Origin: Patescibacteria group bacterium
Lineage (GTDB): Bacteria; Patescibacteriota; Microgenomatia; Daviesbacterales; UBA10151
Length of the DNA: 60,859 nt
Reading direction: 5' to 3'
Assembly: GCA_943356485.1 (NCBI GenBank)
Contig: CALRFD010000007.1
Location: 1 to 60,859, forward strand
In this document: in pieces, positions 7,301-55,936 of the stretch
How the letters are laid out: each line of letters starts with the position of its first letter
How positions within the stretch are numbered: the stretch's first letter is position 1
The notes under the pieces: model-generated
Told to the model about the DNA's origin: nothing
The model's input: only the letters and a program-made list of their open reading frames with translations
Databases searched by the model: none
Made by a program: the position numbers and the translations under genes

Positions 7301-7972
7301 TTATTCCCAGGTTAAATGCTTTATTCTATCCAGCTCTCTCTGGTAATCTGCCTGATTGTAAACAAACTGCTTGTAAGATTCTACATTTTTGAAATTAGAA
7401 AGAATTATTTCTTTATTACAAAGTAAAACACTTGTCTTCCCTAGATATTCCGGTAATGAAGACCATTGATATCTCTCTAAATCTTCAAATGTTTTTACAA
7501 CAAACGAGGTAAAAGGGTTAAGATGAATATAGCGGGATAAATGCAATAATTGATCGTCATCTTCCACCCTGACCGCCTTGAATTGACCCTGCATTAAAGG
7601 TCCTATTCTTCGATGCTTAGTATTGAAATAGCGAATGTAGCTATTTTGTAAATTAGCCATAAATTTTGAAATGCCATTTTCCTTTTTTTGAATCAGAAGC
7701 AAGTGGAAATGATTTGGCATTAGGCAAAAACAGATTATTTCAATTAATCTATCATTTTTCTCACGCAAGCTATTTAAAAAATGACTTTTATCTTCTTGCG
7801 ACAATAGTAAAAATTTAGAATACCGCAATTTTGTATTATAGGAATAAAACTCAAGTATATCCAAAGCTCTCTTATAATCTCTCACGCCCTGGAAAATAGG
7901 CTGCTTATTTACCCCACGGTTAAAAATATGATAATACTGATCTGTTATTAGGGAAATAAATCTTGCAGGCAT
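7301..7972 (-). mobile_element. REP-associated tyrosine transposase (RAYT, Y1 HUH), RAYT1
   Basis: YHIFNRG, CLMPNHFHL (HUH), YIHLNP (catalytic Tyr), YQWSS; flanked by inverted family A elements. Confidence 0.92.
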
Positions 7973-7990
7973 AATTTTACTTTATCAACT

Positions 7991-8030
7991 CGTACACCGA
8001 TGTGTCAAGCTAGTACACTCCCGAAGTGGA
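7991..8030 (-). repeat. REP-like element family A, right flank of RAYT1
   Basis: Minus strand reads tccac-ttcggga-gtgta-ctagcttgacacatcgg. Confidence 0.8.
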
Positions 8031-21398: not shown

Positions 21399-21468
21399 AT
21401 GAGCTTAGTATAGGCGTTTGCTGCCTATAATCCAAGAGATTACAAGGAATCTAACCAACCTTAAATCT

Positions 21469-21503
21469 CACCTGGGGGGTGTAGAATTTAGGACACCTAG
21501 GGA
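21469..21503 (+). repeat. REP-like element family A, next to tRNA-Thr 3' end
   Basis: taggacacctaggga is identical to 42448-42462; preceded by a cacc...ggtg hairpin. Confidence 0.75.
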
Positions 21504-21509
21504 CTTATG

Positions 21510-21581
21510 AGCCAGCGGTGGGAATCGAACCCACGATCCATACTTTACGAAAGTATTGCTTTACCACTAAGCCACGCTGGC
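21510..21581 (-). tRNA. tRNA-Thr (CGT)
   Basis: Acceptor gccagcg/cgctggc; anticodon arm atact-tt-CGT-aa-agtat; CCA not encoded. Confidence 0.95.
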
Positions 21582-21584
21582 TGA

Positions 21585-22085
21585 TTAACTTAAAAAAGGT
21601 ACTATCGCTAAATGCTCCCACTCCGCAGGATTTAACTTGGCAGGGACAATAACCAACTCATTTACTGTAAAAAAGACTTCCGGCAGTTTTACCTTTGATG
21701 CAGCCAGCTGCCTTATCTCCATATCATGATCTCCATAAAGTAAACTGATATGCGGCATAAAAACATTATTTTCTACACCCAGTAGTTTTTTTGCTGCCAA
21801 GTTCAAGTTCATTAATTTAGCAGTAGAATTAACCCTGACAAAAACTGATTGGAAATACGTGGTACTAAATGAAACAGAACCCAAACTTAGCTCCAGCTTA
21901 TCGATTCCTGAAACTAAAGTTTTAACTTTCTCTTTAATTTCAAATAAATCCCCTTCTATATCTCCTAATAAAGTCATATGCGGTTCAAATTTTAGACCAT
22001 TAAACTCGCCGGCTAGTTGTTCGATAACTTTTTTAAGTTTGTTTTCCAGCTCTTCCGGTGGAATAACCCAAATTGTATAAAGCAT
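21585..22085 (-). CDS. 2H phosphoesterase (cyclic phosphodiesterase-like)
   Basis: Two HxT/S motifs: FEPHMTL and FMPHISL. Confidence 0.88.
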   Translation of the reverse strand: MLYTIWVIPPEELENKLKKVIEQLAGEFNGLKFEPHMTLLGDIEGDLFEIKEKVKTLVSGIDKLELSLGSVSFSTTYFQSVFVRVNSTAKLMNLNLAAKKLLGVENNVFMPHISLLYGDHDMEIRQLAASKVKLPEVFFTVNELVIVPAKLNPAEWEHLAIVPFLS

Positions 22086-22132
22086 ATAATTATTATACCT
22101 TTTTTATGAAATACGACCAGTTTGGATATGTA

Positions 22133-22957
22133 TTAAGAAACAGCTACTCTTCTAATCATCTCATCTCCATGCTGACTTAAATATCTTGAACCTCTTATTA
22201 ATCTGTCTATCGGTACAATCGGCATCATAAATTCTAAAGCAGAATGCTTAATAAAAGGATCATTCAATCCCGAACTTAACATTGATCCCCCAAATTTGCC
22301 GAATCTATCATCATAGACAGCATTTAATGAAATAAGGCCATTAACAAATAAGTGCTCTGTGAGTGTTAAGATAGTAATTATACTAATAGTCTCTACCGGA
22401 GTATTTAAATGACCACTAAGTCCTGCTGCAACTACTACTGGGAGTAAAGATAAGTCATAATTTAGTAAAGAAAAATATCCCATTGCGAAAGCCAGATTAT
22501 ATTTACCGCTATTAAAAAGCTTCTCCCTTTTTAAACAATTTAACAGTCCTCTATTTACCTCTTTGTTGAATGCATCCACATACCTGTCCTCAAATTTTCT
22601 ACCTGCTGTTTGATCCCTTGCTACTTTATCTGCTAATTCCTGATCATTAATAGCTATAAGCCAGGTGTCTTCTTCGCTTCTAGTCTGCATCATATTATCA
22701 CCCCGCCATAATCCTAAACGGGGCATTTTTAAAAACTTTGCTACTTTTACAAAGCCAACATCTTCATAGTCCCTGACCCTATCCTGAGGTTTTTGAACAA
22801 TTAGTATATTCCTTCTCATATCGCTTACTCTCATAAAATTATCAGCCACGGAAGGGTTGAGCTCCATAAGATCACTTGCTACACCGGAATAATTTAAATG
22901 TATTGCTCTAGAATGTTTATTTTTGTAATCACCTGAACTCATTTCAATATCAGCCAT
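22133..22957 (-). CDS. Hypothetical membrane protein
   Basis: 274-aa ORF with two hydrophobic segments. Confidence 0.7.
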   Translation of the reverse strand: MADIEMSSGDYKNKHSRAIHLNYSGVASDLMELNPSVADNFMRVSDMRRNILIVQKPQDRVRDYEDVGFVKVAKFLKMPRLGLWRGDNMMQTRSEEDTWLIAINDQELADKVARDQTAGRKFEDRYVDAFNKEVNRGLLNCLKREKLFNSGKYNLAFAMGYFSLLNYDLSLLPVVVAAGLSGHLNTPVETISIITILTLTEHLFVNGLISLNAVYDDRFGKFGGSMLSSGLNDPFIKHSALEFMMPIVPIDRLIRGSRYLSQHGDEMIRRVAVS

Positions 22958-23024
22958 ATAGCCGATATGGTAGCATTTTTTGTATAAAAAGTCAAACTAT
23001 AGGGTTTAAATTAAAGTAAATTTA

Positions 23025-23046
23025 GCTAATCCACCCGAAGGGTGGA
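23025..23046 (-). repeat. Left terminal hairpin of cassette (family A variant)
   Basis: gctaatccacccgaagggtgga; inverted match (21/22) to 29895-29916. Confidence 0.85.
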
Positions 23047-23171
23047 AATATAATTCAGGCATAGTTGGGAGCGATTCTACCCTGTTTTTAGCAAATTGTC
23101 AACCTATAATAAAAAATCTTCATTTGTTATTAAACCTAAAATCTAGTAAAATCCCTTTAGTTTTTTAAATT

Positions 23172-25793
23172 ATGCAGGAAGTAGAAAGACTAGGTTATAT
23201 TCCAAAAATAGAAATAGCTTTTAACCCTGAGCAGGGTGTGCCTTTTAATGTTAAAAAGATCAGTCCACGCTGGCAACTTTCTGTAAATAAAGCTCACTTT
23301 GAAGCCAGAGGTTTCCTGCCTGATGAGATAAATGGTGCAATATATTTAGAAGAGGAACTTTTATTACAACAAATAATAGTAAATTCACAGGCGGACGTTG
23401 AGGGGTTGCGTAAATGGCAGGAGGTGGCAAGTGAAGACCCCAAAGCTGTAGCTTTTAAATCTGCCTTTGAAAGACTGGCGGCGCTGTCATCCTTGGGAGC
23501 AAAAAATGAAACAAGAGCTCGTCAGGCCAGAAAATATTTAGAAAGATTTGCCTCAAGGTCACAAGGCTCAGATTATACTGATCAACTATTCGGCTACATT
23601 CTAAAAAATGGCTTGGGTCAAAACGAGCCAGTTGATGAAGGAGTAGTAGCATCGGTAGTAAATAATCTTCAAAGGCAGGAAACAATTGAGGGTAGAGATG
23701 TATCTACCTTGGAAGCGCTATTTTCACCTGATCTTTCTGCTGCTGCTAGAACTGCCTGGTTTGAGGCACGCTTTTTGCCCAGGCTTCAGTTTTTGGAATA
23801 CCAGGATGAATTGAGGAATAAACAGGAAGAAGCAGAAAGTAAAAGTGAGGCCTCATCTCAACCACAACCATTACCAGAGCCTACTCCACCTGAAGCAAAA
23901 GACGAATTTGAGCAGCACGGGGGAAGCAAAGAAAAAGGTGATGGTCAAGCGCTTTTTATTATAAACCCTTCTTATACAGGTTACTGGGAAGAAGATAGCT
24001 ATGATGTTATAGATGAAGCAACAGGCAGACTAATAAAATCATCGCCGCAAAAAGCGAAGAAAGAAGCTTTTAAGTTTCATGATGACTTTATAGATGGTTC
24101 TGCAAGAACAATAAGAGGATATTCAGGGACAAATTTATTTGCCTTGCCTTTAGCACCAAATTTCCAATTAACGGCCCAAGGTATCGATGAGCTAAAAAAA
24201 CAGGGTATGCAGGTATTAACCGATTCAGAGGGACATATTTTTATTCAATCACAAGCCATCATGCAATTTGAGACGGAAATTGCCATGAGTACTAAGCCCA
24301 ATAATGCCGGAGCTGTCTCAATCGATCGTAGTATTTCAGAGCAAAAATTACCGGACAAGATAGCTATGGAGTTAGACAGAATTGCTAATTTAGCAACAGG
24401 TTCTTTAGATAAAATTCAGCAATGGGTAGATTTTATACAAACCTTTTTTAAATTTCCAAGTGATGACCAATCTGAAGCATTATATGCAGCAGTTGACAAC
24501 AGCCTTTCCAGGCTGGAAACGGTAGCAGAGCGTAAATTATTAGACTGCCATCTGGCCAGAGAGTTTTTTATCGCAGGATTAAAACGGCTTGATTTGCCAA
24601 ATGTGGAGTGGCGGGCAGTAAATGGTTATTATGTAGCAGGTCAGCAACACGATGGCACTGCCCATTTACATTCTGGAATAAATCATGCCTGGGTTAAAAT
24701 TAGGTTAGATCAGGTTGGAAACTGGATAATCATTGACCCAACTCCTCCTGGGGATCCAAGCCATCAAGGAGAAGGAGCAATTGATGAATTTAGCCAGCTT
24801 TCCCCTCAACTTATTTCTAAAAAAGATTTAGATGAGATGGAGCAGGAAGCAATAACTTTTAGACAAACAAGATCTCCGGAAACTTACGATCATTATTTAT
24901 TAGAATTTGCCAGACAAGCCGGGATATCAGAGGAAGAAGCACAAAAAATTCTTGCGACACTCGCTCAAGTGGATAAACTCCAAGACCGTCAGGGTAGGTC
25001 TATTTTAGCCCGTCTTAAAGAACAATTTGACCGTATTATCCAACAATATACTGCTGTAAGGCAGGAAGATATGGGACTGGTCGAGATGAGTAGGGGGCAT
25101 GGTTTGGAAGAAGTGGTTGATGCTTATATTGATATTAGGTTTGGGTATACAGATCCATTAGGTTTTGCCAAAAAAAGGCCGGTTGAGGAAAAAGAGGAAT
25201 ACTATGGCGGATGGGATTTAGAGATTGTAGCTGATGGAAGCAGTTCAATGCAGGAGTCGTTAGGGGGCAGAGTGAAATATTTAGTTCAGCGGGATATGAG
25301 TTATCTGCTTCACCGCGGTTTACACCGCTTTTCCCAGGAGGCTCAAAGGAGGAAACTTAGATTGGTAACCCCTTTAAAAATAAGAAGCAGCCAGTATATA
25401 TTCAGAGGAAATAGGATTGAGGAGATAAAACCTTTAAGTGATGAGTTTACGCCGCTTCAAATGGCTCAACTCTGGAAGAAATCAGCCGAAAATATTGACG
25501 GAGTTACCCCTGCCCATCTTGGTTTGCAGGTTATTCTTGATAGAATACCACCAAATGAATTACAACTACTTAAAGATAAAAAACTGCTTAAGGTGGTAGC
25601 TTTAATTAGCGACGGTGGGTATGATGACCCGACAAGAGTTCAAAACCTAATTAACAGGTTGCATGAAATAAATGTCATCGTAGCAGAGTTTCGTATAACC
25701 TATGCCAAATCTTTAGAAGACCTGCCGCAAAATGTTGCAGAAAAAGTTATTGAAGCAGCCAGGTTGTTAATGCCGGAAAAGGTCAGAAAATAA
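23172..25793 (+). CDS. Transglutaminase-like + VWA domain protein
   Basis: LLDCHLA / NHAWV / IIDPTP triad; C-terminal VWA with MIDAS DGSSSM and LISDGG. Confidence 0.85.
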   Translation: MQEVERLGYIPKIEIAFNPEQGVPFNVKKISPRWQLSVNKAHFEARGFLPDEINGAIYLEEELLLQQIIVNSQADVEGLRKWQEVASEDPKAVAFKSAFERLAALSSLGAKNETRARQARKYLERFASRSQGSDYTDQLFGYILKNGLGQNEPVDEGVVASVVNNLQRQETIEGRDVSTLEALFSPDLSAAARTAWFEARFLPRLQFLEYQDELRNKQEEAESKSEASSQPQPLPEPTPPEAKDEFEQHGGSKEKGDGQALFIINPSYTGYWEEDSYDVIDEATGRLIKSSPQKAKKEAFKFHDDFIDGSARTIRGYSGTNLFALPLAPNFQLTAQGIDELKKQGMQVLTDSEGHIFIQSQAIMQFETEIAMSTKPNNAGAVSIDRSISEQKLPDKIAMELDRIANLATGSLDKIQQWVDFIQTFFKFPSDDQSEALYAAVDNSLSRLETVAERKLLDCHLAREFFIAGLKRLDLPNVEWRAVNGYYVAGQQHDGTAHLHSGINHAWVKIRLDQVGNWIIIDPTPPGDPSHQGEGAIDEFSQLSPQLISKKDLDEMEQEAITFRQTRSPETYDHYLLEFARQAGISEEEAQKILATLAQVDKLQDRQGRSILARLKEQFDRIIQQYTAVRQEDMGLVEMSRGHGLEEVVDAYIDIRFGYTDPLGFAKKRPVEEKEEYYGGWDLEIVADGSSSMQESLGGRVKYLVQRDMSYLLHRGLHRFSQEAQRRKLRLVTPLKIRSSQYIFRGNRIEEIKPLSDEFTPLQMAQLWKKSAENIDGVTPAHLGLQVILDRIPPNELQLLKDKKLLKVVALISDGGYDDPTRVQNLINRLHEINVIVAEFRITYAKSLEDLPQNVAEKVIEAARLLMPEKVRK

Positions 25794-25794
25794 T

Positions 25795-25852
25795 ATGTCA
25801 GATGAAATATTAAGATTAAGTGCAGATCAGGTTAGAGAAATGTTAAAACAGG
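25795..25852 (+). repeat. Shared 5' leader, copy 1
   Basis: 58 nt, 2 mismatches versus 26637-26694; first 24 nt identical to 29869-29892. Confidence 0.95.
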
Positions 25853-26619
25853 GCGAGATGGATATTCCCACTATTCCTCTTATAGAACCACAGATACCTG
25901 GTGATTCTATGATAGAACGTGCAAAAGAGGTTTTGGGAAAGGATTTTATGGGAGTAGAAGCAGTCAGGAATATGGAAAGTAAACTTAAAGGGGTTGGGGT
26001 AAATGTAGAATTTGTATTAGATAATATTCCCCTCCTGCCTTATGATGAACAGGATCTACAACTTGCCAAACAGAATGGAGAGATGTTAGTTCTTAGACCA
26101 GAAGAAATGGAAAGAGATGAAGGAAAAATGCCTCTAACTTTGATGAATTTCCGTAAGTTATTCAGTAAAAACCCACTAGGAAAGACAGGGGCTATATTTG
26201 GCACTAATTGGTATACAAGAGAAAAGTTTGCAACACAGGCTGGAGAGATAAAATTAGGCTGGTCATTGGTAAGGAAGGATGTTTTGATGGTAAGAAGAGG
26301 TGTTTTGGATGGTGCCATCTTTACTAGCTGGAATAAACAAGAAGGGCTTCTTCAGCAGTATGGAGAAGGTTTAAAAATACAAGGAGCTAAAAATGTCTCT
26401 GTCAGACGCAGGACTGCGCTGGAAGCTGTTTATGATACTCTTCTATATTATGTAAATACCGGAGAAAAACTACTTCTTGATAAATACGATTGGGGTCAAA
26501 CTAAAACATCCGTTGGTAGTTACGTGTACCTAGGTCGTTTCAATACAGGTGGTCTACGTGCGTTCCGCATCATACCTGGGCACTCGTACTACAGTATCGG
26601 TGTGTGCGCCACTAGGTAG
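25795..26619 (+). CDS. Leader-bearing protein 1; C-type-lectin-like DGR-target-like protein
   Basis: N-terminal MSDEILRLSADQVREMLKQ; C-terminal YDW.....G..V.LG.F...GL......P......GV...R* pattern. Confidence 0.75.
   Translation: MSDEILRLSADQVREMLKQGEMDIPTIPLIEPQIPGDSMIERAKEVLGKDFMGVEAVRNMESKLKGVGVNVEFVLDNIPLLPYDEQDLQLAKQNGEMLVLRPEEMERDEGKMPLTLMNFRKLFSKNPLGKTGAIFGTNWYTREKFATQAGEIKLGWSLVRKDVLMVRRGVLDGAIFTSWNKQEGLLQQYGEGLKIQGAKNVSVRRRTALEAVYDTLLYYVNTGEKLLLDKYDWGQTKTSVGSYVYLGRFNTGGLRAFRIIPGHSYYSIGVCATR
26485..26619 (+). other. Putative DGR variable region
   Basis: Shift to NNC/NNT codons (tac, agt, cgt, ttc, cgc, atc, cac, tgc) between fixed G/W/P scaffold residues at the 3' end. Confidence 0.6.
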
Positions 26620-26636
26620 TTTTAGAGGAAGAATAT

Positions 26637-27815
26637 ATGTCAGAAGAAATATTAAGATTAAGTGCAGATCAGGTTAGAGAAATGCTAAAACAGGAAGAAT
26701 ATAGAAAACTACTTTCCGCAATTGATTCCTATTCGTCTCTAGAACCAATTACATCTAGAACTTCACCCTCCAATACAATTCAAGCTGTAAGAGAATTAAT
26801 ACATTCTCATTCAGAAGACGATAAAATTGCTGGTACTAGAATGACAATATTGAACGCAAGAACTAGAATTAGCAAAGATCCAGGTATAGAGCCTCCTTTA
26901 ACAAAGGAATTAGTAGCACAACTTGCAGAAGCCTTAAAAACTAACCAGCCGTTACTTGGAGGTATAGAGGAAATACTGGATGTAGCAAATGTTTTAGGGA
27001 CAGATATTTCGGAAGAGCACAGGCGTTTAAATGAAGAAAGCAATGGCACTGTTGGAAAAAGGTTTTTTGATGAAATGGAAGCGCTTGCCATAAGAGTGAA
27101 GAAAGGAGATGGGCAAGTAGAACCTCAACTGTTCAGGCTTGCTTTTGCAGGAGAAGCGCTGTTTTCAACCCCGGAATATAAAAGCTATGATAAACTTGAG
27201 CTTGCACAAATAGCATTGAGGAATGCACGAAGAAAGGGCTTTTCACCAGCCTGGAAAAGGTTAGTTCCTCCGACATATGACGAAATAAGTGAAAGAGCCG
27301 CAAGTTTGAGCGGACGCGAATTGGGAAAATTACCTGCAGGACAAGTTTTAGCATTAATTGAGGAAAGAAAGCTAAAAGTGGGACAGCTTGTAGACATGGT
27401 TATAGATGATGAAGTAAGAAATCTTGTACGCAAACAAGCTCAAAGCGTCATCAATAGTCTCATAAGAGAGCACATAGAACATCCAAGTATTACAAGTATA
27501 ATATGGGAGTTGTTAGTAGCTTTGGAAGGTGAGGGAATAGCAAAATCAAATTTAGCAGATGTGGCTTTGGTAATCGTTGAAATGCAGGTTAAGAAAGCAG
27601 AAAAATATAGGGAAAACATTTCTACAGAATATTTAAGTTTAAACTTTCGTTCTACTAATTACGATTGGCTTAACTCAATAAGACCAACAGGTTTTTTTAA
27701 GTTGGACAAAAGAATAAGTAAAGAAGAAGCTAATAGAGATAGACTATATTTCTCTAATCTTGAAGAACTTTTAGTTAGTATATACCATGGGATAGTTGAG
27801 CAGATAACAAAATAA
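26637..27815 (+). CDS. Leader-bearing protein 2 (unknown, likely helical, domain)
   Basis: MSEEILRLSADQVREMLKQ, then unrelated to protein 1; gagga SD upstream. Confidence 0.8.
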   Translation: MSEEILRLSADQVREMLKQEEYRKLLSAIDSYSSLEPITSRTSPSNTIQAVRELIHSHSEDDKIAGTRMTILNARTRISKDPGIEPPLTKELVAQLAEALKTNQPLLGGIEEILDVANVLGTDISEEHRRLNEESNGTVGKRFFDEMEALAIRVKKGDGQVEPQLFRLAFAGEALFSTPEYKSYDKLELAQIALRNARRKGFSPAWKRLVPPTYDEISERAASLSGRELGKLPAGQVLALIEERKLKVGQLVDMVIDDEVRNLVRKQAQSVINSLIREHIEHPSITSIIWELLVALEGEGIAKSNLADVALVIVEMQVKKAEKYRENISTEYLSLNFRSTNYDWLNSIRPTGFFKLDKRISKEEANRDRLYFSNLEELLVSIYHGIVEQITK

Positions 27816-27844
27816 TTTGTGCTTTAAGCCTGCTTGAGCTATAA

Positions 27845-29863
27845 TTGCCTCCAATTGCTCAAGAAAATATGATTGTTGAAAAAGTTGCACAAGCAGCTCG
27901 AATTGGGAGTGAATATTTACCAACACGGCAAGATCCAAGTCTTTCTCCTCCTGAGAAAGCAGAACAGTTATGGGGTCTTTTTAATGACTACTCCACTTTG
28001 CGCAGAAAGCTTTACCGGGAAGGAATACAGGCAAATATAGGAGGTAGAAGAATTAGAGAAATACCTCAAGATGAAAAGGATGATATTCTTGCAAGATCCA
28101 TCCGAAATCCCCTCGCGCAGCGTTTAGTAGGAGAAATAAGTTGTCTTTGGCAAGATCTAGAGGTAAGAGGAGTTTTTGTATTAAAAGTGCAAGAATCACT
28201 TGGGGAAAGACAAATACATGATGTTTCTCTAAGAAAATACCGCAAATTAAAAAGTGAATTGGTAGGTTTGGAAGATGAAAACTTTGACTTACTCCGCAAC
28301 CAATTTTTGATGCATCAAATGACTCCAACCCTTCGGGCAATTGATCTGTTCCATAACAGGGTTGCAAAAGACAGAGTAAAGAAAAACATTGATGATTTGG
28401 AGACCACAGGGGGCATGGCTGCAAGTGCCAGGACAGCAAGGGGTGGTTTAGATAGAGAACATGCTGATTTAACTGCTCTTTTGGCTTTTGAAAGACTGGT
28501 AGCATACCATCGGGAATTTAAACTAAGCGGTATTATTCTCACCCCTTCCAGACAAGAATTACTCGGAGAAGTAGTAACGAAAACTGCAGCCGAAACCTGG
28601 ATTCAACTGGTTGGTGAAACAGGGACAGGTAAAAGTACTTTTGCCAAAAGGACTTCGCATATTCTAAATGGAGAACCTCCCCAGTATGCATCAGGAGAAA
28701 AATGGGGTGATGCCAGAGCTCTGATTGGAACAAAAACCATGGAAGGCAGCAGGGTCTATTTTGATTTTGGTCCGCTGGTATATGCTTTAACAGGATGTCA
28801 AAACTCTTTGGAGATGGAAGAAGCAATTAAGACCCGAACTGAAACACCGGGGAAAATATTGCAGCTTGATGAATTGAATAAATTTGACCAGGATGCCTTG
28901 ATGGGGGTATTAAACATAGTTTCTACTCTTAGACCGGGTGAGATATTTAACTTTAAAGAGCTTCCGGGAATTAAATTACGCAAGGCAAAAAGAGGATTTG
29001 CAATTATCGCCACCATGAATCCGGCCTCTGTTCGCTATGACAGAAAAGAACTTGATCCTTCTACAGAAAGACGTTTTTATGATGGTAAAGAAAAGGTGGA
29101 TTATCCGCCTATGACTGCCCAGGAGCCAGAGCTGTATGAGATTTTCCTGGCTGTTTTACTGGATGATAATGGCCGGATTAGAATTGCAGAGCAAGAGCTG
29201 GCGCCTGCCTTTAATGAAGTCAGAAATACTGCAACAGGCATGATTAAATACGAACTTGACTCAGATGTAAAAAAGCATGGCGCGCTTTACCGTTTTTCCT
29301 TAGCAGCAACAGAAATACATAAAAGCTTTACCCAAAAAAGTAATGTAGCTAAAACTGCCACTAGTGAAGGATTTTTAGAAAAGACAGTTCTAGATATGGA
29401 GGTTTTAGTGAAATGGATGGAGGGATATAGAGCACAAATTGAAGGTGGTGATTCGCTGGCTGCCTACTTAGACAAAAAAATTCATGATTTTTACACTAAC
29501 ATTGAAAGTGCCAATGATAAAGTGATTTTTGAGAGAATTTTTAACTACTTCGGATTTAATATCACAAATCCCCGTAACATCTCAAAACCACTGTATCATC
29601 CTTTAACACCGATTGAAATTGGCTATCTTACTCCCAAAACCCCCAGGCTAGTGCGAAGAACTGGCGAGGAAGTAACACCCAAAACAAAACTTTATATCAA
29701 CCCACGTTCAGGGGAAGAGATAACATACCTTTCTACGGATGTGGAGATAGAAGCTGGTAAAAAAATAAGACCTGGAGAGATTATTTCTTTGCGATCAAAA
29801 CAATACTTATATCTTGGTATTCACCCTGAAACTAAAGAAATTATTTTGATACTCCAGCAGTAA
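27845..29863 (+). CDS. MoxR/AAA_5-type AAA+ ATPase
   Basis: Walker A GETGTGKS, Walker B LQLDE, sensor-1 ATMNP, DPSTERRF. True start may be ATG 27869. Confidence 0.88.
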   Translation: MPPIAQENMIVEKVAQAARIGSEYLPTRQDPSLSPPEKAEQLWGLFNDYSTLRRKLYREGIQANIGGRRIREIPQDEKDDILARSIRNPLAQRLVGEISCLWQDLEVRGVFVLKVQESLGERQIHDVSLRKYRKLKSELVGLEDENFDLLRNQFLMHQMTPTLRAIDLFHNRVAKDRVKKNIDDLETTGGMAASARTARGGLDREHADLTALLAFERLVAYHREFKLSGIILTPSRQELLGEVVTKTAAETWIQLVGETGTGKSTFAKRTSHILNGEPPQYASGEKWGDARALIGTKTMEGSRVYFDFGPLVYALTGCQNSLEMEEAIKTRTETPGKILQLDELNKFDQDALMGVLNIVSTLRPGEIFNFKELPGIKLRKAKRGFAIIATMNPASVRYDRKELDPSTERRFYDGKEKVDYPPMTAQEPELYEIFLAVLLDDNGRIRIAEQELAPAFNEVRNTATGMIKYELDSDVKKHGALYRFSLAATEIHKSFTQKSNVAKTATSEGFLEKTVLDMEVLVKWMEGYRAQIEGGDSLAAYLDKKIHDFYTNIESANDKVIFERIFNYFGFNITNPRNISKPLYHPLTPIEIGYLTPKTPRLVRRTGEEVTPKTKLYINPRSGEEITYLSTDVEIEAGKKIRPGEIISLRSKQYLYLGIHPETKEIILILQQ

Positions 29864-29868
29864 CAATT

Positions 29869-29955
29869 ATGTCAGATGAAATATTAAGATTATATCCACC
29901 CTTCGGGTGGACTAGCCCGCCTTGCCGGCGAGGCAGGCTTGACACCTCTTCTTAA
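29869..29955 (+). pseudogene. Truncated third leader-bearing gene
   Basis: MSDEILRL (24 nt identical to copy 1), then runs into the hairpin and stops after 28 aa. Confidence 0.8.
29895..29949 (+). repeat. Right terminal hairpin of cassette; composite family A element
   Basis: tccacccttcgggtgga-ctagc-ccgccttgccggcgaggcagg-cttgacacct; same architecture as the murG insert. Confidence 0.85.
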
Positions 29956-30032
29956 AAAATTTAAGTAAATACAAATATATACCACCTTCCATTTGACCTA
30001 GATCGGCACATATCCTTTTACTATTTAAGGTG

Positions 30033-30104
30033 AGCGGGAGACGGAACTCGAATCCGCGACATCCTCCTTGGGAAGGAGGCATTCTACCACTGAATTACTC
30101 CCGC
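30033..30104 (-). tRNA. tRNA-Gly (CCC)
   Basis: Acceptor gcgggag/ctcccgc; anticodon arm cctcc-tt-CCC-aa-ggagg. Confidence 0.95.
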
Positions 30105-30105
30105 A

Positions 30106-30242
30106 ATCAAACTAACACTTAGCCTTAAACTAAATTTCTGTTCTTTATTTCTGCTTTGCAGAAAACGAGGCCCTCTTCCTGGGAATCATTTAGATTCCCG
30201 TCATGCACCAAGTGGTGCACGATTCACTGAATTACTCCCGCA
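30106..30242 (-). pseudogene. tRNA-Gly 5' pseudo-copy interrupted by hairpins
   Basis: 18-bp exact repeat (30225-30242 = 30088-30105), followed on the minus strand by three hairpins. Confidence 0.7.
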
Positions 30243-30328
30243 CTTTGGATATTCTCCCAAACTAGCAATAATTTATCAAGCAACACTGGACTTATTAACA
30301 AAATACCGATATAAAAGAATTTAACATT

Positions 30329-31855
30329 ATGTTAAAACAGATTACTGCCACTAAATCCCTAATCCTAGTTTTTTTGATTCTCTTTATCTCTGCCTGTCTT
30401 AGATTTTATAACTTATCAAACGTCTTTGTCTTTGCAGGCGACGAAGAATATCAGGCCATACTGGCTCAAACAATAGTTAAGCATTTTCATATCATCTGGA
30501 TTGGAGTTGGGGCAGCACATACCGGTTTTTATCTTGGACCTTATTGGACTTATTTTACTGCCTTTTGGTTGTGGCTATCAAAAGGGGATCCTTTAATTAC
30601 CGGGTATGTCTCTTCGTTTATAGGAGTTTTAACAACTTTATTAACAATAACTGCAGGCTGGCAACTATTTGGCAAAAGAACCGGACTATTATCCGGCCTG
30701 CTTTATGCCACCCTACCCCTGGTTGTGTTTTTTGACCAAAAATACTGGAATCCTACCTTAGTCCCCTTTTTATCGCTTTTAATGTTACTCGCTCTAGCTA
30801 AGATGAAGACTAATCAAAATTGGGCTATCCTACTCTCTGGATGTTTTGGTTTAATCTTTCATATACATTTATCACTTTTCCCCCTTATTTTTGTGGCTGG
30901 ATTTTGGTTAATTAAACAAAAAATTAAATTATCAAAAAAAGTTATCCTGTTATCTATTGTTACTTTTTTGTTAACAGTTGCTCCCTTAATTGCTTTTGAT
31001 TATTTTCATAAGGGATCAAATATCTTAACTCCGCTGAGGTTTAACAAAATATCCTCTGATCCGGTAAATAGAATTAATCCTCAACATCATTTTCTGGCTC
31101 TTTTCCAAACCTTGGGCAGAATCTGGTATATCGCCCCTTTTGGCAATAATTCAGATGAAGTTATAACTTCCTGCACTTCAACTTCTAGGATTGCCAGCCC
31201 GCCTTTAACTGATCAGATCTCCAAAAGGTTTAAACCGCCAATCCTATTATCCTTACTTGGCCTAACCATCCTTGCTCTCTTTCTGCTTAATCCCTCTACC
31301 TGGCGAAAGAAAAATTATAGTCTTCTGGGATTGTTTATATTATCTATAACGGGTTTTTTCCTGCTCTTTCCTGGAGGGGCTTTTGAATATTATCTTTTGG
31401 GAATCCTCCCTTTACTGCTATTTTTACCCGGCATTTTAATAGACTATTATAAAAAATCAGGCTTACTGATTATTCCCATGATAATAGTTGCTTGCTTAGC
31501 CGGAATTTTTACAATCATTTCAAACAAACCTGAATTTGGGCTTGAGGCAAAAAAAATCCTGATTCAGCAATCGTTGAGATTAATAGACAACCAGCCATTT
31601 GAGATTAAACAAACAGGTATTTGTCATTTTTATGAGGGCTGGCGCTACCTATTTGTATTAAATGGTAAAAAACCGGAAAGAAGTCAAAGCGATGAAGGGC
31701 TAGGATGGTTGTATCAGGATGAAATAACTAAGCAAAAAACTAAATACCAAATAATCCTTTCTGAAACAAGGGCACCAATAAATTTTGATACTAAAAAATC
31801 TACTGTCTTAAAATCAGGCGGTTTTAGCGCTTATATTTTTACAGAATTTAATTGA
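30329..31855 (+). CDS. ArnT/PMT-like (GT-C) membrane glycosyltransferase
   Basis: LRFYNL, GDE, YLGP, WNP motifs; many TMs. Confidence 0.82.
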   Translation: MLKQITATKSLILVFLILFISACLRFYNLSNVFVFAGDEEYQAILAQTIVKHFHIIWIGVGAAHTGFYLGPYWTYFTAFWLWLSKGDPLITGYVSSFIGVLTTLLTITAGWQLFGKRTGLLSGLLYATLPLVVFFDQKYWNPTLVPFLSLLMLLALAKMKTNQNWAILLSGCFGLIFHIHLSLFPLIFVAGFWLIKQKIKLSKKVILLSIVTFLLTVAPLIAFDYFHKGSNILTPLRFNKISSDPVNRINPQHHFLALFQTLGRIWYIAPFGNNSDEVITSCTSTSRIASPPLTDQISKRFKPPILLSLLGLTILALFLLNPSTWRKKNYSLLGLFILSITGFFLLFPGGAFEYYLLGILPLLLFLPGILIDYYKKSGLLIIPMIIVACLAGIFTIISNKPEFGLEAKKILIQQSLRLIDNQPFEIKQTGICHFYEGWRYLFVLNGKKPERSQSDEGLGWLYQDEITKQKTKYQIILSETRAPINFDTKKSTVLKSGGFSAYIFTEFN

Positions 31856-54806: not shown

Positions 54807-55936
54807 ACCCTTCCAGCAAGCAGTAGTGTTTCCAACACTAATCTTTTCGCTGCATCATAGATAACTACAGATTTTGCAAATTTGGCTTTTTCTTTTATAG
54901 AATCTATATTCTTTAACATAAATTTCACCTTTTCAAACAGGCTTTCTGAAGATAAATTTGACTGATTAATTATTGCTGTCAAACCTAATTTTTCAAAAAA
55001 CTTTGCATTTTTAACTTGTTCGTCCTGGTAAAGGTAGGGTATTGGAATAACCAGCGCTGGTTTAGCCAGATAAGCCAACTCAGTTAAGGTATTAATTCCT
55101 GCCCGGGAAATTACCAAATCCGCTTTTTGCAAAACTTCAGCATAATCAGAGCCAAACCACTTTCTAACAGTATAGTTTCCGCCTGATGGCTTTGAGCTTT
55201 CCAATCTTTGTAATCTCTCGAAATCCATATATTTAGAATCACCTGTCTGATGATAAATATGGGCTATCTTTAGGAGCTTTTGCAAACAAGCCTCTATCAA
55301 CAAGTTTATACTGTGCGAACCCTGGTTCCCTCCCATAACTAAAATACTAGGCAATTTCGATACACCTCCGATGTGTACTAGCCCTGCCTGCCGGCAGGCA
55401 GGTTGGACACCTAAGGATATTTGAACAATTTCTTCCCTGATAGGGTTACCGGTTAAAACGACTTTTCCGCCTTTAAAGGAATTTCCCTCAAAAGACACAG
55501 CAATTTTATCTGCAAAAAAAGAGCTTATTTTATTGGCAAGACCAGATACTAAAGTTTGCTCATGAACTATAATTGGAATTGAAAAAAGCCATCCTATAAC
55601 TACTAGAGGGATGGCTACATATCCGCCGAACGATAAAATCACATCCGGCTTTTCTTTCAAAATAATAAAGAACCCTTGCGCAAAGCCAACTGGAATCTTA
55701 AGTAAGGAGGGAATTGTATAAAGAGTAAACGACCTTTGCAGTCTACCTGTAATTATCGAAATAAATTTAACTCCAAGTTTAGGCAAAACTTCAGATTCGA
55801 TAGATTTTGTCTTGTCTCCCTCCTGAGTCGTGCCTCTACCCACATAAACAATCTCTACTAAAGGATCCTGTTTTTTAAACTCTTCAATAACCGCAATAGC
55901 AGGAGTAAAGTGCGCACCGGTAATAAGTATTTTCAT
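54803..55936 (-). CDS. murG: MurG glycosyltransferase with in-frame repeat insertion
   Basis: SFGGYV, HEQ, TGNPIR, GGNQG, SRAG, Q..NA. Confidence 0.95.
   Translation of the reverse strand: MKILITGAHFTPAIAVIEEFKKQDPLVEIVYVGRGTTQEGDKTKSIESEVLPKLGVKFISIITGRLQRSFTLYTIPSLLKIPVGFAQGFFIILKEKPDVILSFGGYVAIPLVVIGWLFSIPIIVHEQTLVSGLANKISSFFADKIAVSFEGNSFKGGKVVLTGNPIREEIVQISLGVQPACRQAGLVHIGGVSKLPSILVMGGNQGSHSINLLIEACLQKLLKIAHIYHQTGDSKYMDFERLQRLESSKPSGGNYTVRKWFGSDYAEVLQKADLVISRAGINTLTELAYLAKPALVIPIPYLYQDEQVKNAKFFEKLGLTAIINQSNLSSESLFEKVKFMLKNIDSIKEKAKFAKSVVIYDAAKRLVLETLLLAGRV
55361..55417 (+). repeat. Composite family A element with nested 20-bp palindrome
   Basis: tacacctccgatgtgtactagc[cctgcctgccggcaggcagg]ttggacacctaagga. 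Confidence 0.92.

Follow-up and report, generated by a model that had tools for sequence, protein, structure and literature searches.

An operon between two tRNA genes

The window analysed in this study, a 60,859-nucleotide stretch of contig CALRFD010000007.1 from a Patescibacteria group bacterium, carries between a tRNA-Thr gene and a tRNA-Gly gene a four-gene operon that lies between two inverted hairpins, includes a gene resembling the targets of diversity-generating retroelements (DGRs) and is followed by the stub of a second such gene. The genome under study (G000), of 1.2 Mb, is assembled into 15 contigs with a completeness of 94.6%. The first gene of the operon (23172..25793, forward strand) encodes an 873-amino-acid protein in which transglutaminase-like Cys/His/Asp residues are combined with a von Willebrand factor A (vWA) MIDAS-like motif (DGSSS); its Pfam match to Transglut_core is weak (E=0.045), it has no sequence match in PDB, and it is 59% identical to its ortholog in a relative, G006. 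The second gene (25795..26619, forward) encodes a 274-amino-acid protein whose structural model, built from a 40-row alignment, has a pLDDT of 92.8. This model best matches the fold of TvpA, the variable protein of a Treponema DGR (Z 9.2, root-mean-square deviation 3.8, 155 aligned residues), in a tie with PvdO and PorKN, which have FGE/C-type-lectin folds, and followed by Mtd (Z 7.0) and TaqVP (Z 6.0); Foldseek alone gave no match at E<=0.001. With this C-type-lectin/FGE fold and a C-terminal variable repeat the protein has the features of a DGR target, and its orthologs show adenine-specific mismatches to a template. The third gene (26637..27815, forward) encodes a 392-amino-acid protein of no known family, with no Pfam match and a best Atlas TM-by-query of 0.29, which shares with the lectin protein a 19-residue N-terminal leader. 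The fourth gene (27845..29863, forward) encodes a MoxR/AAA_5 ATPase (Pfam AAA_5, E=6.5e-15) with Walker A at residue 257 and Walker B near residue 339. The labels MoxR, MIDAS and transglutaminase triad are presumptive and go beyond the Pfam and motif results. Among the 96 genomes of the family, G000 counted, the ATPase occurs in three and the vWA protein likewise in three, and 10 of the 39 ATPase search matches carry a lectin domain fused at the C-terminus.

The leader deserves mention in its own right. Within a genome the lectin targets begin with almost the same leader, which varies from lineage to lineage (window genes at 25795, 26637 and 29869; L022:6380 and 9365; L052), and in the window the same leader is also grafted onto the unrelated 392-amino-acid protein. 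The leader may serve the ATPase/vWA pair as a docking tag.

The two hairpins are GCTAATCCACCCGAAGGGTGGA at 23025-23046 (forward) and GCTAGTCCACCCGAAGGGTGGA at 29895-29916 (reverse), and the inverted pair of 22-mers reported by the first-pass annotation is real. No other match to the 22-mer at three or fewer mismatches exists in the window, and two matches were obtained in none of 100 shuffles. On folding, each hairpin shows a stem of 7 bp capped by a loop of 3 nt, and the arms extend to 26 nt at 92% identity. The left hairpin (23024..23046, forward) is a short solo end of the type associated with REP-associated tyrosine transposases (RAYTs; REP, repetitive extragenic palindrome); it lacks an AGGTG arm, its 3' (outer) foot points towards the operon, and divergent promoter-like sites lie on either side of it. 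The right copy belongs to a longer unit (29895..29953, reverse) made up of the hairpin (29895-29911), GCTAG, a 22-nt palindrome (29917-29938) and an AGGTG arm (29939-29947), a composite build that recurs twice on contig C1 and also on C3 and C8. Palindromes of this second family (29917-29938 and 55383-55402 in the window; also on C1, C3 and C8) are repeatedly found before GCTA within the arms of repeat units. A second, degenerate end of the hairpin's repeat family, variant M, lies at 29981..30018 (reverse) and has five copies in the genome.

It is the right unit that adjoins a broken gene. Its 3' (outer) foot meets an 8-codon stub (29869..29892, forward) that is identical at 24 of 24 nucleotides to the start of the lectin gene at 25795 and whose homology to that gene stops 2 nt short of the hairpin, as had been claimed for a third gene with the leader. 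In G006 and L052 this place, behind the ATPase, is taken by an intact target gene. Nothing integrase-like is encoded between the hairpins, as judged by Pfam on the four open reading frames, which agrees with the earlier observation.

The inserted segment is larger than the bracket. It is limited on the left by tRNA-Thr(CGT) (21509..21581, reverse; ARAGORN) and on the right by tRNA-Gly(CCC) (30032..30104, reverse; ARAGORN and Rfam, the latter finding four tRNAs and nothing else), which in the window are 8.45 kb apart. In six relatives the same two tRNA genes are separated by 28 bp (G018), 133 bp (G009), 43 bp (G027), 7 bp (G021), 68 bp (G003) and about 60 bp (G040); these relatives were picked since adjacency had been indicated beforehand, not at random, and a seventh contig ended inside tRNA-Gly. 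The empty-site comparison with these kin, which belong to other genera, thus places the whole 8.45 kb, and not just the bracket, in the insert, which reaches past the left hairpin. The genus is represented by G000 alone, and the relatives compared are about 60% identical in protein. Outside the left hairpin the insert carries a cyclic-phosphodiesterase-like (2H) gene (21585..22085, reverse; Pfam CPDase, E=1.4e-13), which is not between the two tRNAs in the six relatives, and a patchily distributed hypothetical gene (22133..22957, reverse). Homologs of the latter occur in 5 of the 95 other family genomes, and in none of them does a CPDase or an operon gene lie within 1.5 kb. The insert may therefore have been built up stepwise, and the left hairpin could mark an internal seam. 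Just downstream of tRNA-Thr, and co-oriented with it, lies another RAYT-type repeat (21466-21503), which together with the left hairpin encloses tRNA-Thr, the CPDase gene and the 22133 gene in an element-like polarity, although the two repeats are different variants.

The right end of the insert runs into a duplicated segment. A 350-bp block comprising the hairpin, tRNA-Gly and an upstream half-tRNA (29896..30245) is 89% identical to the tRNA-Gly(GCC) locus at C3:151092-151455. Homology ends at the hairpin's 3' foot, and the DNA beyond the foot differs between the two loci. The upstream part of the block is also present at the GCC locus of G009, so that the block was likely copied from the GCC locus. 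The tRNA-Gly(CCC) gene itself looks like a mosaic, its body and flanks matching the tRNA-Gly(GCC) of the same genome and one D-stem pair and the anticodon arm being of CCC type. Upstream of tRNA-Gly lies a copy of the 5' half of tRNA-Gly that is broken by three GC-rich hairpins (30105-30245; G000:C3:151092-151232; L025:8024-8155); it is kept in G009, where the changes preserve the hairpins, and is possibly a structured leader.

Repeat family and orientation of its ends

The first-pass annotation had seen this hairpin variant nowhere else in the window, which is correct; the genome, by contrast, has further copies. G000 contains four exact copies of the 17-mer, nine copies of the 21-mer pattern GCTARWCCACCCGAAGGGTGG and 14 copies of the 15-mer core at two or fewer mismatches; the 21-mer is present in 1 of the 95 other family genomes and a looser pattern in 33 of 96. 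The full repeat unit consists of a AGGTGYSAAGCTAR arm followed by the hairpin. Three copies, the left hairpin among them, lack the AGGTG arm, and several have a second palindrome before GCTA. Conservation among the copies ends 1-2 nt beyond the 3' foot. The copies lie mostly between open reading frames and thus represent a multi-copy, mostly extragenic palindrome, which is not a canonical GTAG REP: the hairpin foot is GCTAR plus one base. Half of the 14 copies lie within 1.5 kb downstream of a tRNA gene and are co-oriented with it, a zone that makes up 4.3% of the DNA and here represents about five independent loci. Such a tRNA bias was rejected as a rule for the family, since only one of 29 loci in relatives shows it. 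The tRNA-associated copies in G000 (C3, C7, C8, C10 and C13) often separate accessory genes in an array-like manner; neither the other repeat families of this genome nor the loci in relatives show this pattern. At G000:C1:160850-164068 lies a 3.2-kb insert of three genes that is absent from one relative (G015). A hairpin unit, with its inner side turned to the insert, marks the left edge, and a RAYT repeat of another kind marks the right edge.

The association of the hairpin with RAYTs, also claimed at first pass, is borne out by relatives: in G094 a RAYT-like gene has an exact copy behind its stop codon, and G067 has a RAYT gene flanked on either end by variant M. In TIRtrons with their TIRYT and REPtrons with their RAYT (PMC3733652, PMC3333891, PMC8266576), Y1 (HUH) genes are boxed by inverted, partly self-complementary repeats, the repeats also occur dispersed and alone, and several paralogues exist, each with its own repeat; in all this they resemble the present family, whose hairpins likewise flank a Y1 transposase gene in inverted orientation. 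They differ in that the arm here is AGGTGYSAAGCTAR and there is no GTAG tag, that each variant has some 10-15 copies, that the RAYT-like proteins score about 50 bits against a cut-off of 80 for NCBIfam REP_Tyr_transpos, and that no enzyme matching this hairpin variant was found in G000. The repeat family is one that works like the terminal inverted repeats of TIRtrons (PMC3733652). The particular partner first suggested, RAYT1 (7301..7972, reverse), belongs to a set of six Y1 transposase genes that G000 encodes and is flanked by related but different ends, which share with the hairpin the architecture (a GTGTCAAGCTA arm and a CAC-core hairpin) but not the sequence. It is not an obvious partner, as the RAYT of G094, which is flanked by the exact hairpin, is only 45% identical to it. 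The 5' repeats of RAYT genes (for example 7990-8030 in the window) hold TTGACA in the inner arm, facing the transposase gene, and by this match to the consensus the repeat end may supply the -35 box of the gene.

The orientation of the two hairpins can be set against that of copies elsewhere. We surveyed 29 loci in genomes other than G000, taking the first one listed per genome (three of the 33 positive genomes yielded no locus). A RAYT gene lies within 70 bp at eight of these loci, which hold nine units, and it is on the AGGTG side in all nine; at one further locus a RAYT lies 975 bp away on the opposite side. The six RAYT genes of G000 show the AGGTG-side polarity at both ends of two genes and at the 5' end of a third, the remaining three being flanked by different repeats. 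Since RAYT genes lie on the AGGTG side, intact elements have the 3' foot of the hairpin on their outside. The two hairpins of the window turn these outer feet towards the operon, so the pair is inside-out with respect to intact RAYT elements and does not enclose the operon as the ends of a RAYT-associated REP doublet (REPIN) or composite would. The operon therefore stands in the position of flanking or target DNA rather than of cargo, and we infer that the joining of such an end to a target would leave just this picture, a gene broken off next to the foot. In Escherichia coli, TnpA(REP) cleaves on both sides of the REP and also at a distance (PMC3333891, PMC8266576), and for this reason polarity is strong but indirect evidence.

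A bracket of two such hairpins is only mildly unusual and not compelling. When copies are scattered at random in intergenic DNA and pairs spaced 0.5-7 kb apart are counted, the probability of a pair oriented as observed is P=0.018 for four copies, 0.10 for nine and 0.20 for 13, and that of a pair in either inverted orientation is P=0.037, 0.20 and 0.37, respectively. Whether chance accounts for the flanking, as the first-pass annotation allowed, depends on the count: such a pair is not rare with 9-13 copies (P 0.10-0.20), but is less expected with the four exact ones alone (P=0.018-0.037). Clustering near tRNAs makes close pairs likelier than this uniform model gives. The bracket is likely a product of chance, the left hairpin being in all likelihood a copy of this dispersed repeat that arose independently.

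The retroelement in relatives and its absence here

Relatives show what the operon looks like when complete. In G006 the order is the vWA gene, a target, the ATPase, an intact 276-amino-acid target, a reverse transcriptase (RT), Avd, the template repeat, a serine recombinase and tRNA-Thr(GGT), the operon pointing towards the tRNA as it does in the window. In the two variable repeats of G006, 18 of 19 and 24 of 26 mismatches to the template fall on adenines. G049 has the vWA gene, an ATPase-lectin fusion, the RT, Avd and the template repeat, and on a metagenome contig an intact target follows straight behind the ATPase. As intact targets adjoin the ATPase in these relatives, the stub in the window is the remnant of such a target. 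A DGR with RT, Avd and template repeat is thus present in G006 and G049 but not in G000, where no match to the two RTs, two Avds and the template repeat tested was found in the 94.6% complete assembly. Compared with the G006 template, the variable region that remains in G000 shows 67 differences over 117 positions, and 45 of these are not at adenines. Judged from G006, some 4.7 kb including the DGR and the recombinase would be missing from the window, and this loss would also explain why no integrase is found there. The recombinase adjoins both copies of the island in G006, whereas neither a recombinase nor attachment (att) repeats were found in the window insert; membership in a serine-recombinase tRNA island would accordingly hold for the ancestor only. 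The second G006 copy, at L088:10536-13937 (G006:C1), has decayed at a tRNA-Ser gene, its truncated vWA/transglutaminase gene being fused in frame to the serine recombinase.

No hairpin units were found at the operon loci of G006 and G049. Two relatives thus carry the operon without hairpins, albeit in other genera. Wider searches for the operon returned one locus in genome_contigs (a duplicate, counted once), three metagenome loci, of which one 4.4-kb contig is close, and 13 viral loci matching at just 24-29% identity; among 401 genomes of the class the operon occurs in two, including G000.

In the candidate phyla radiation (CPR), CLec-AAA targets are described as the commonest DGR architecture (PMC10907252, citing Paul et al. 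2017), and the tables of Paul et al. 2017 could list relatives of the operon. The window operon and its relatives resemble these CPR DGRs in combining a MoxR/AAA_5 ATPase with C-type-lectin variable domains, fused or adjacent, and, in the relatives, in possessing an RT, Avd and a template repeat (PMC10907252). The window copy differs in lacking these three and in having a mere stub as its ATPase-adjacent target, and also in that the leader of its targets recurs on a third protein. A comparable decay is reported for DGR loci whose components are degraded by small mobile elements, miniature inverted-repeat transposable elements or transposons (PMC10907252); here, however, a solo Y1-transposase end is involved and the entire retroelement is gone.

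Origin of the right junction

We consider it probable, if by no means certain, that the locus is the remnant of a DGR island whose right side was trimmed at a solo RAYT-type end and whose left hairpin copy is coincidental. The vWA/MoxR-ATPase/C-type-lectin operon would have arrived within a tRNA-integrated DGR island, and its tRNA-proximal part would then have been deleted with the endpoint at the solo transposase-end hairpin, the lost piece comprising, by analogy with G006, the second target, the RT, Avd, the template repeat and the recombinase. A RAYT acting in trans may have joined the outer end of the hairpin to codon 8 of the target gene, through an adjacent deletion or a one-ended transfer, and such direct joining was possibly the same event that copied the tRNA-Gly block. 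Alternatively, a RAYT may have inserted a hairpin copy at codon 8, which later recombined with a tRNA-proximal copy. The right junction was likely made by a RAYT-type enzyme, and the lectin target that remains is predicted to be no longer diversified. Support comes from the duplicated tRNA-Gly block, which ends at the same foot as the stub junction, and from contig C13, where a gene reading through the hairpin has lost its stop codon at that foot, as judged from 59 homologs. Recurrent large truncations at the hairpin are not shown by this case, in which just the stop codon was lost, and a gene on C3 that also reads through the hairpin had no homolog in the length range searched.

Several points weigh against this explanation. 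The second G006 copy has lost everything between the vWA gene and the recombinase with no hairpin found nearby, which means that a RAYT is not needed for loss of a DGR. The RAYT of G094 that bears the exact hairpin is 33-49% identical to the six RAYTs of G000, and hence no clear cognate enzyme is present. The polarity of RAYT-adjacent hairpins does not prove where the enzyme cuts, neither an att repeat nor a target-site duplication was found at the ends of the insert, and a genus consisting of one genome permits no direct comparison of before and after. The 94.6% completeness leaves room for a DGR acting in trans, and the bracket has P=0.018-0.037 when the four exact 17-mers alone are counted.

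The strongest competitor, which we nevertheless hold to be fairly unlikely, accepts the same DGR-island remnant but makes the hairpin a passive breakpoint with no RAYT chemistry at the junction, the deletion being due either to slippage during replication or to an ectopic recombination event that started from the tRNA-Gly(GCC) locus and was resolved at the stem-loop. The 350-bp block shared with C3 and the GCC/CCC mosaic tRNA do point to homologous exchange, the G006 paralogue that lost the same region by fusion of its vWA gene to the recombinase did so without a hairpin, and G000 has no clear cognate RAYT. The break, however, lies within 3 nt of the foot that is the outer end in intact elements, where conservation among hairpin copies also stops, 1-2 nt beyond, and where a second gene, that of C13, ends as well. 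An artefact of assembly, with the right junction chimeric at the repeat shared by two tRNA-Gly loci, is highly improbable. Such a 350-bp repeat does lie at the junction and public contigs break at its 39-bp identical core, but the junction of stub and hairpin is unique sequence, and both hairpin junctions lie within contigs of run X1 (21474-25692 and 26655-29956, the latter with the ATPase, stub and hairpin) that show 0 differences, as does a contig of run X2 (29927-30644). All three runs examined belong to a single study, and the source sample may be among them; they guard against misassembly rather than give independent support. No joints of a circle or an empty site were found in their contigs, which drop rare variants; an opposite-strand joint 21503/30018 in X1 likely derives from C3, which has the two short repeats in opposite orientation at a distance of 5 kb.

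The first-pass annotation had proposed that about 6.9 kb of cargo was captured, moved or trimmed at REP sites. Trimming stands for the right junction, where the target gene is cut 2 nt from the foot, but capture or movement as one hairpin-bounded unit is not supported, given the inside-out pair, the 8.45-kb insert, the shared tRNA-Gly block, the hairpin-less relatives and a bracket that is not rare. A giant REPIN or composite of 6.9 kb with the hairpins as its ends, which a RAYT captured, cutting the third gene, and moved here, seems to us quite unlikely. The pair comprises two of the four exact 17-mers (P=0.018-0.037), its arms extend to 26 nt, it encloses the operon with a promoter-like site, capture would leave a stub, and gene sequestration by bacterial interspersed mosaic elements has already been proposed (PMC3333891). 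Yet the only close hairpin doublet of the genome (C3:83474-83519) has the opposite polarity, the block that holds the right hairpin recurs at a locus with different neighbouring genes, two genes of the insert lie outside the bracket, and the outer 30-nt flanks share no string longer than 3 nt. A control on C1, imperfect because the variants are mixed, points the same way: a pair of M and hairpin with the same inside-out polarity brackets genes that are matched in 15 of 15 relatives of the family. REPINs as described (PMC3116915) do consist of two inverted copies of a RAYT-associated palindrome served by an enzyme in trans, but their doublets are spaced near 71 and 110 bp, against a spacer of 6.8 kb in the window, where there is a single such pair whose polarity is opposite to that of the family's own doublet and RAYT flanks. 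The locus is therefore not good evidence for a 7-kb REP-bounded transposon.

What the trimmed DGR-island remnant offers is a base-precise junction, in which an outer hairpin foot is joined to codon 8 of a DGR target. It is hard to demonstrate natural rearrangements on the kilobase scale that involve RAYTs and their repeats. In the literature covered, which takes in few subscription papers, we found no account of this repeat family in CPR bacteria, nor of a DGR deleted at such an end. The locus shows one route by which CPR bacteria lose a DGR, leaving behind a lectin-ATPase module that is likely frozen. More broadly, and with considerable doubt, we speculate that solo RAYT ends in this CPR lineage are one-ended, kilobase-scale genome editors at tRNA-proximal accessory arrays, joining their outer foot to neighbouring genes, here with deletion of a DGR, and carrying along what adjoins their inner side, for example the tRNA-Gly block or the 3.2-kb insert on C1. 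If true, domesticated RAYTs would contribute to the gain and loss of genes and also to the switching off of hypermutation.

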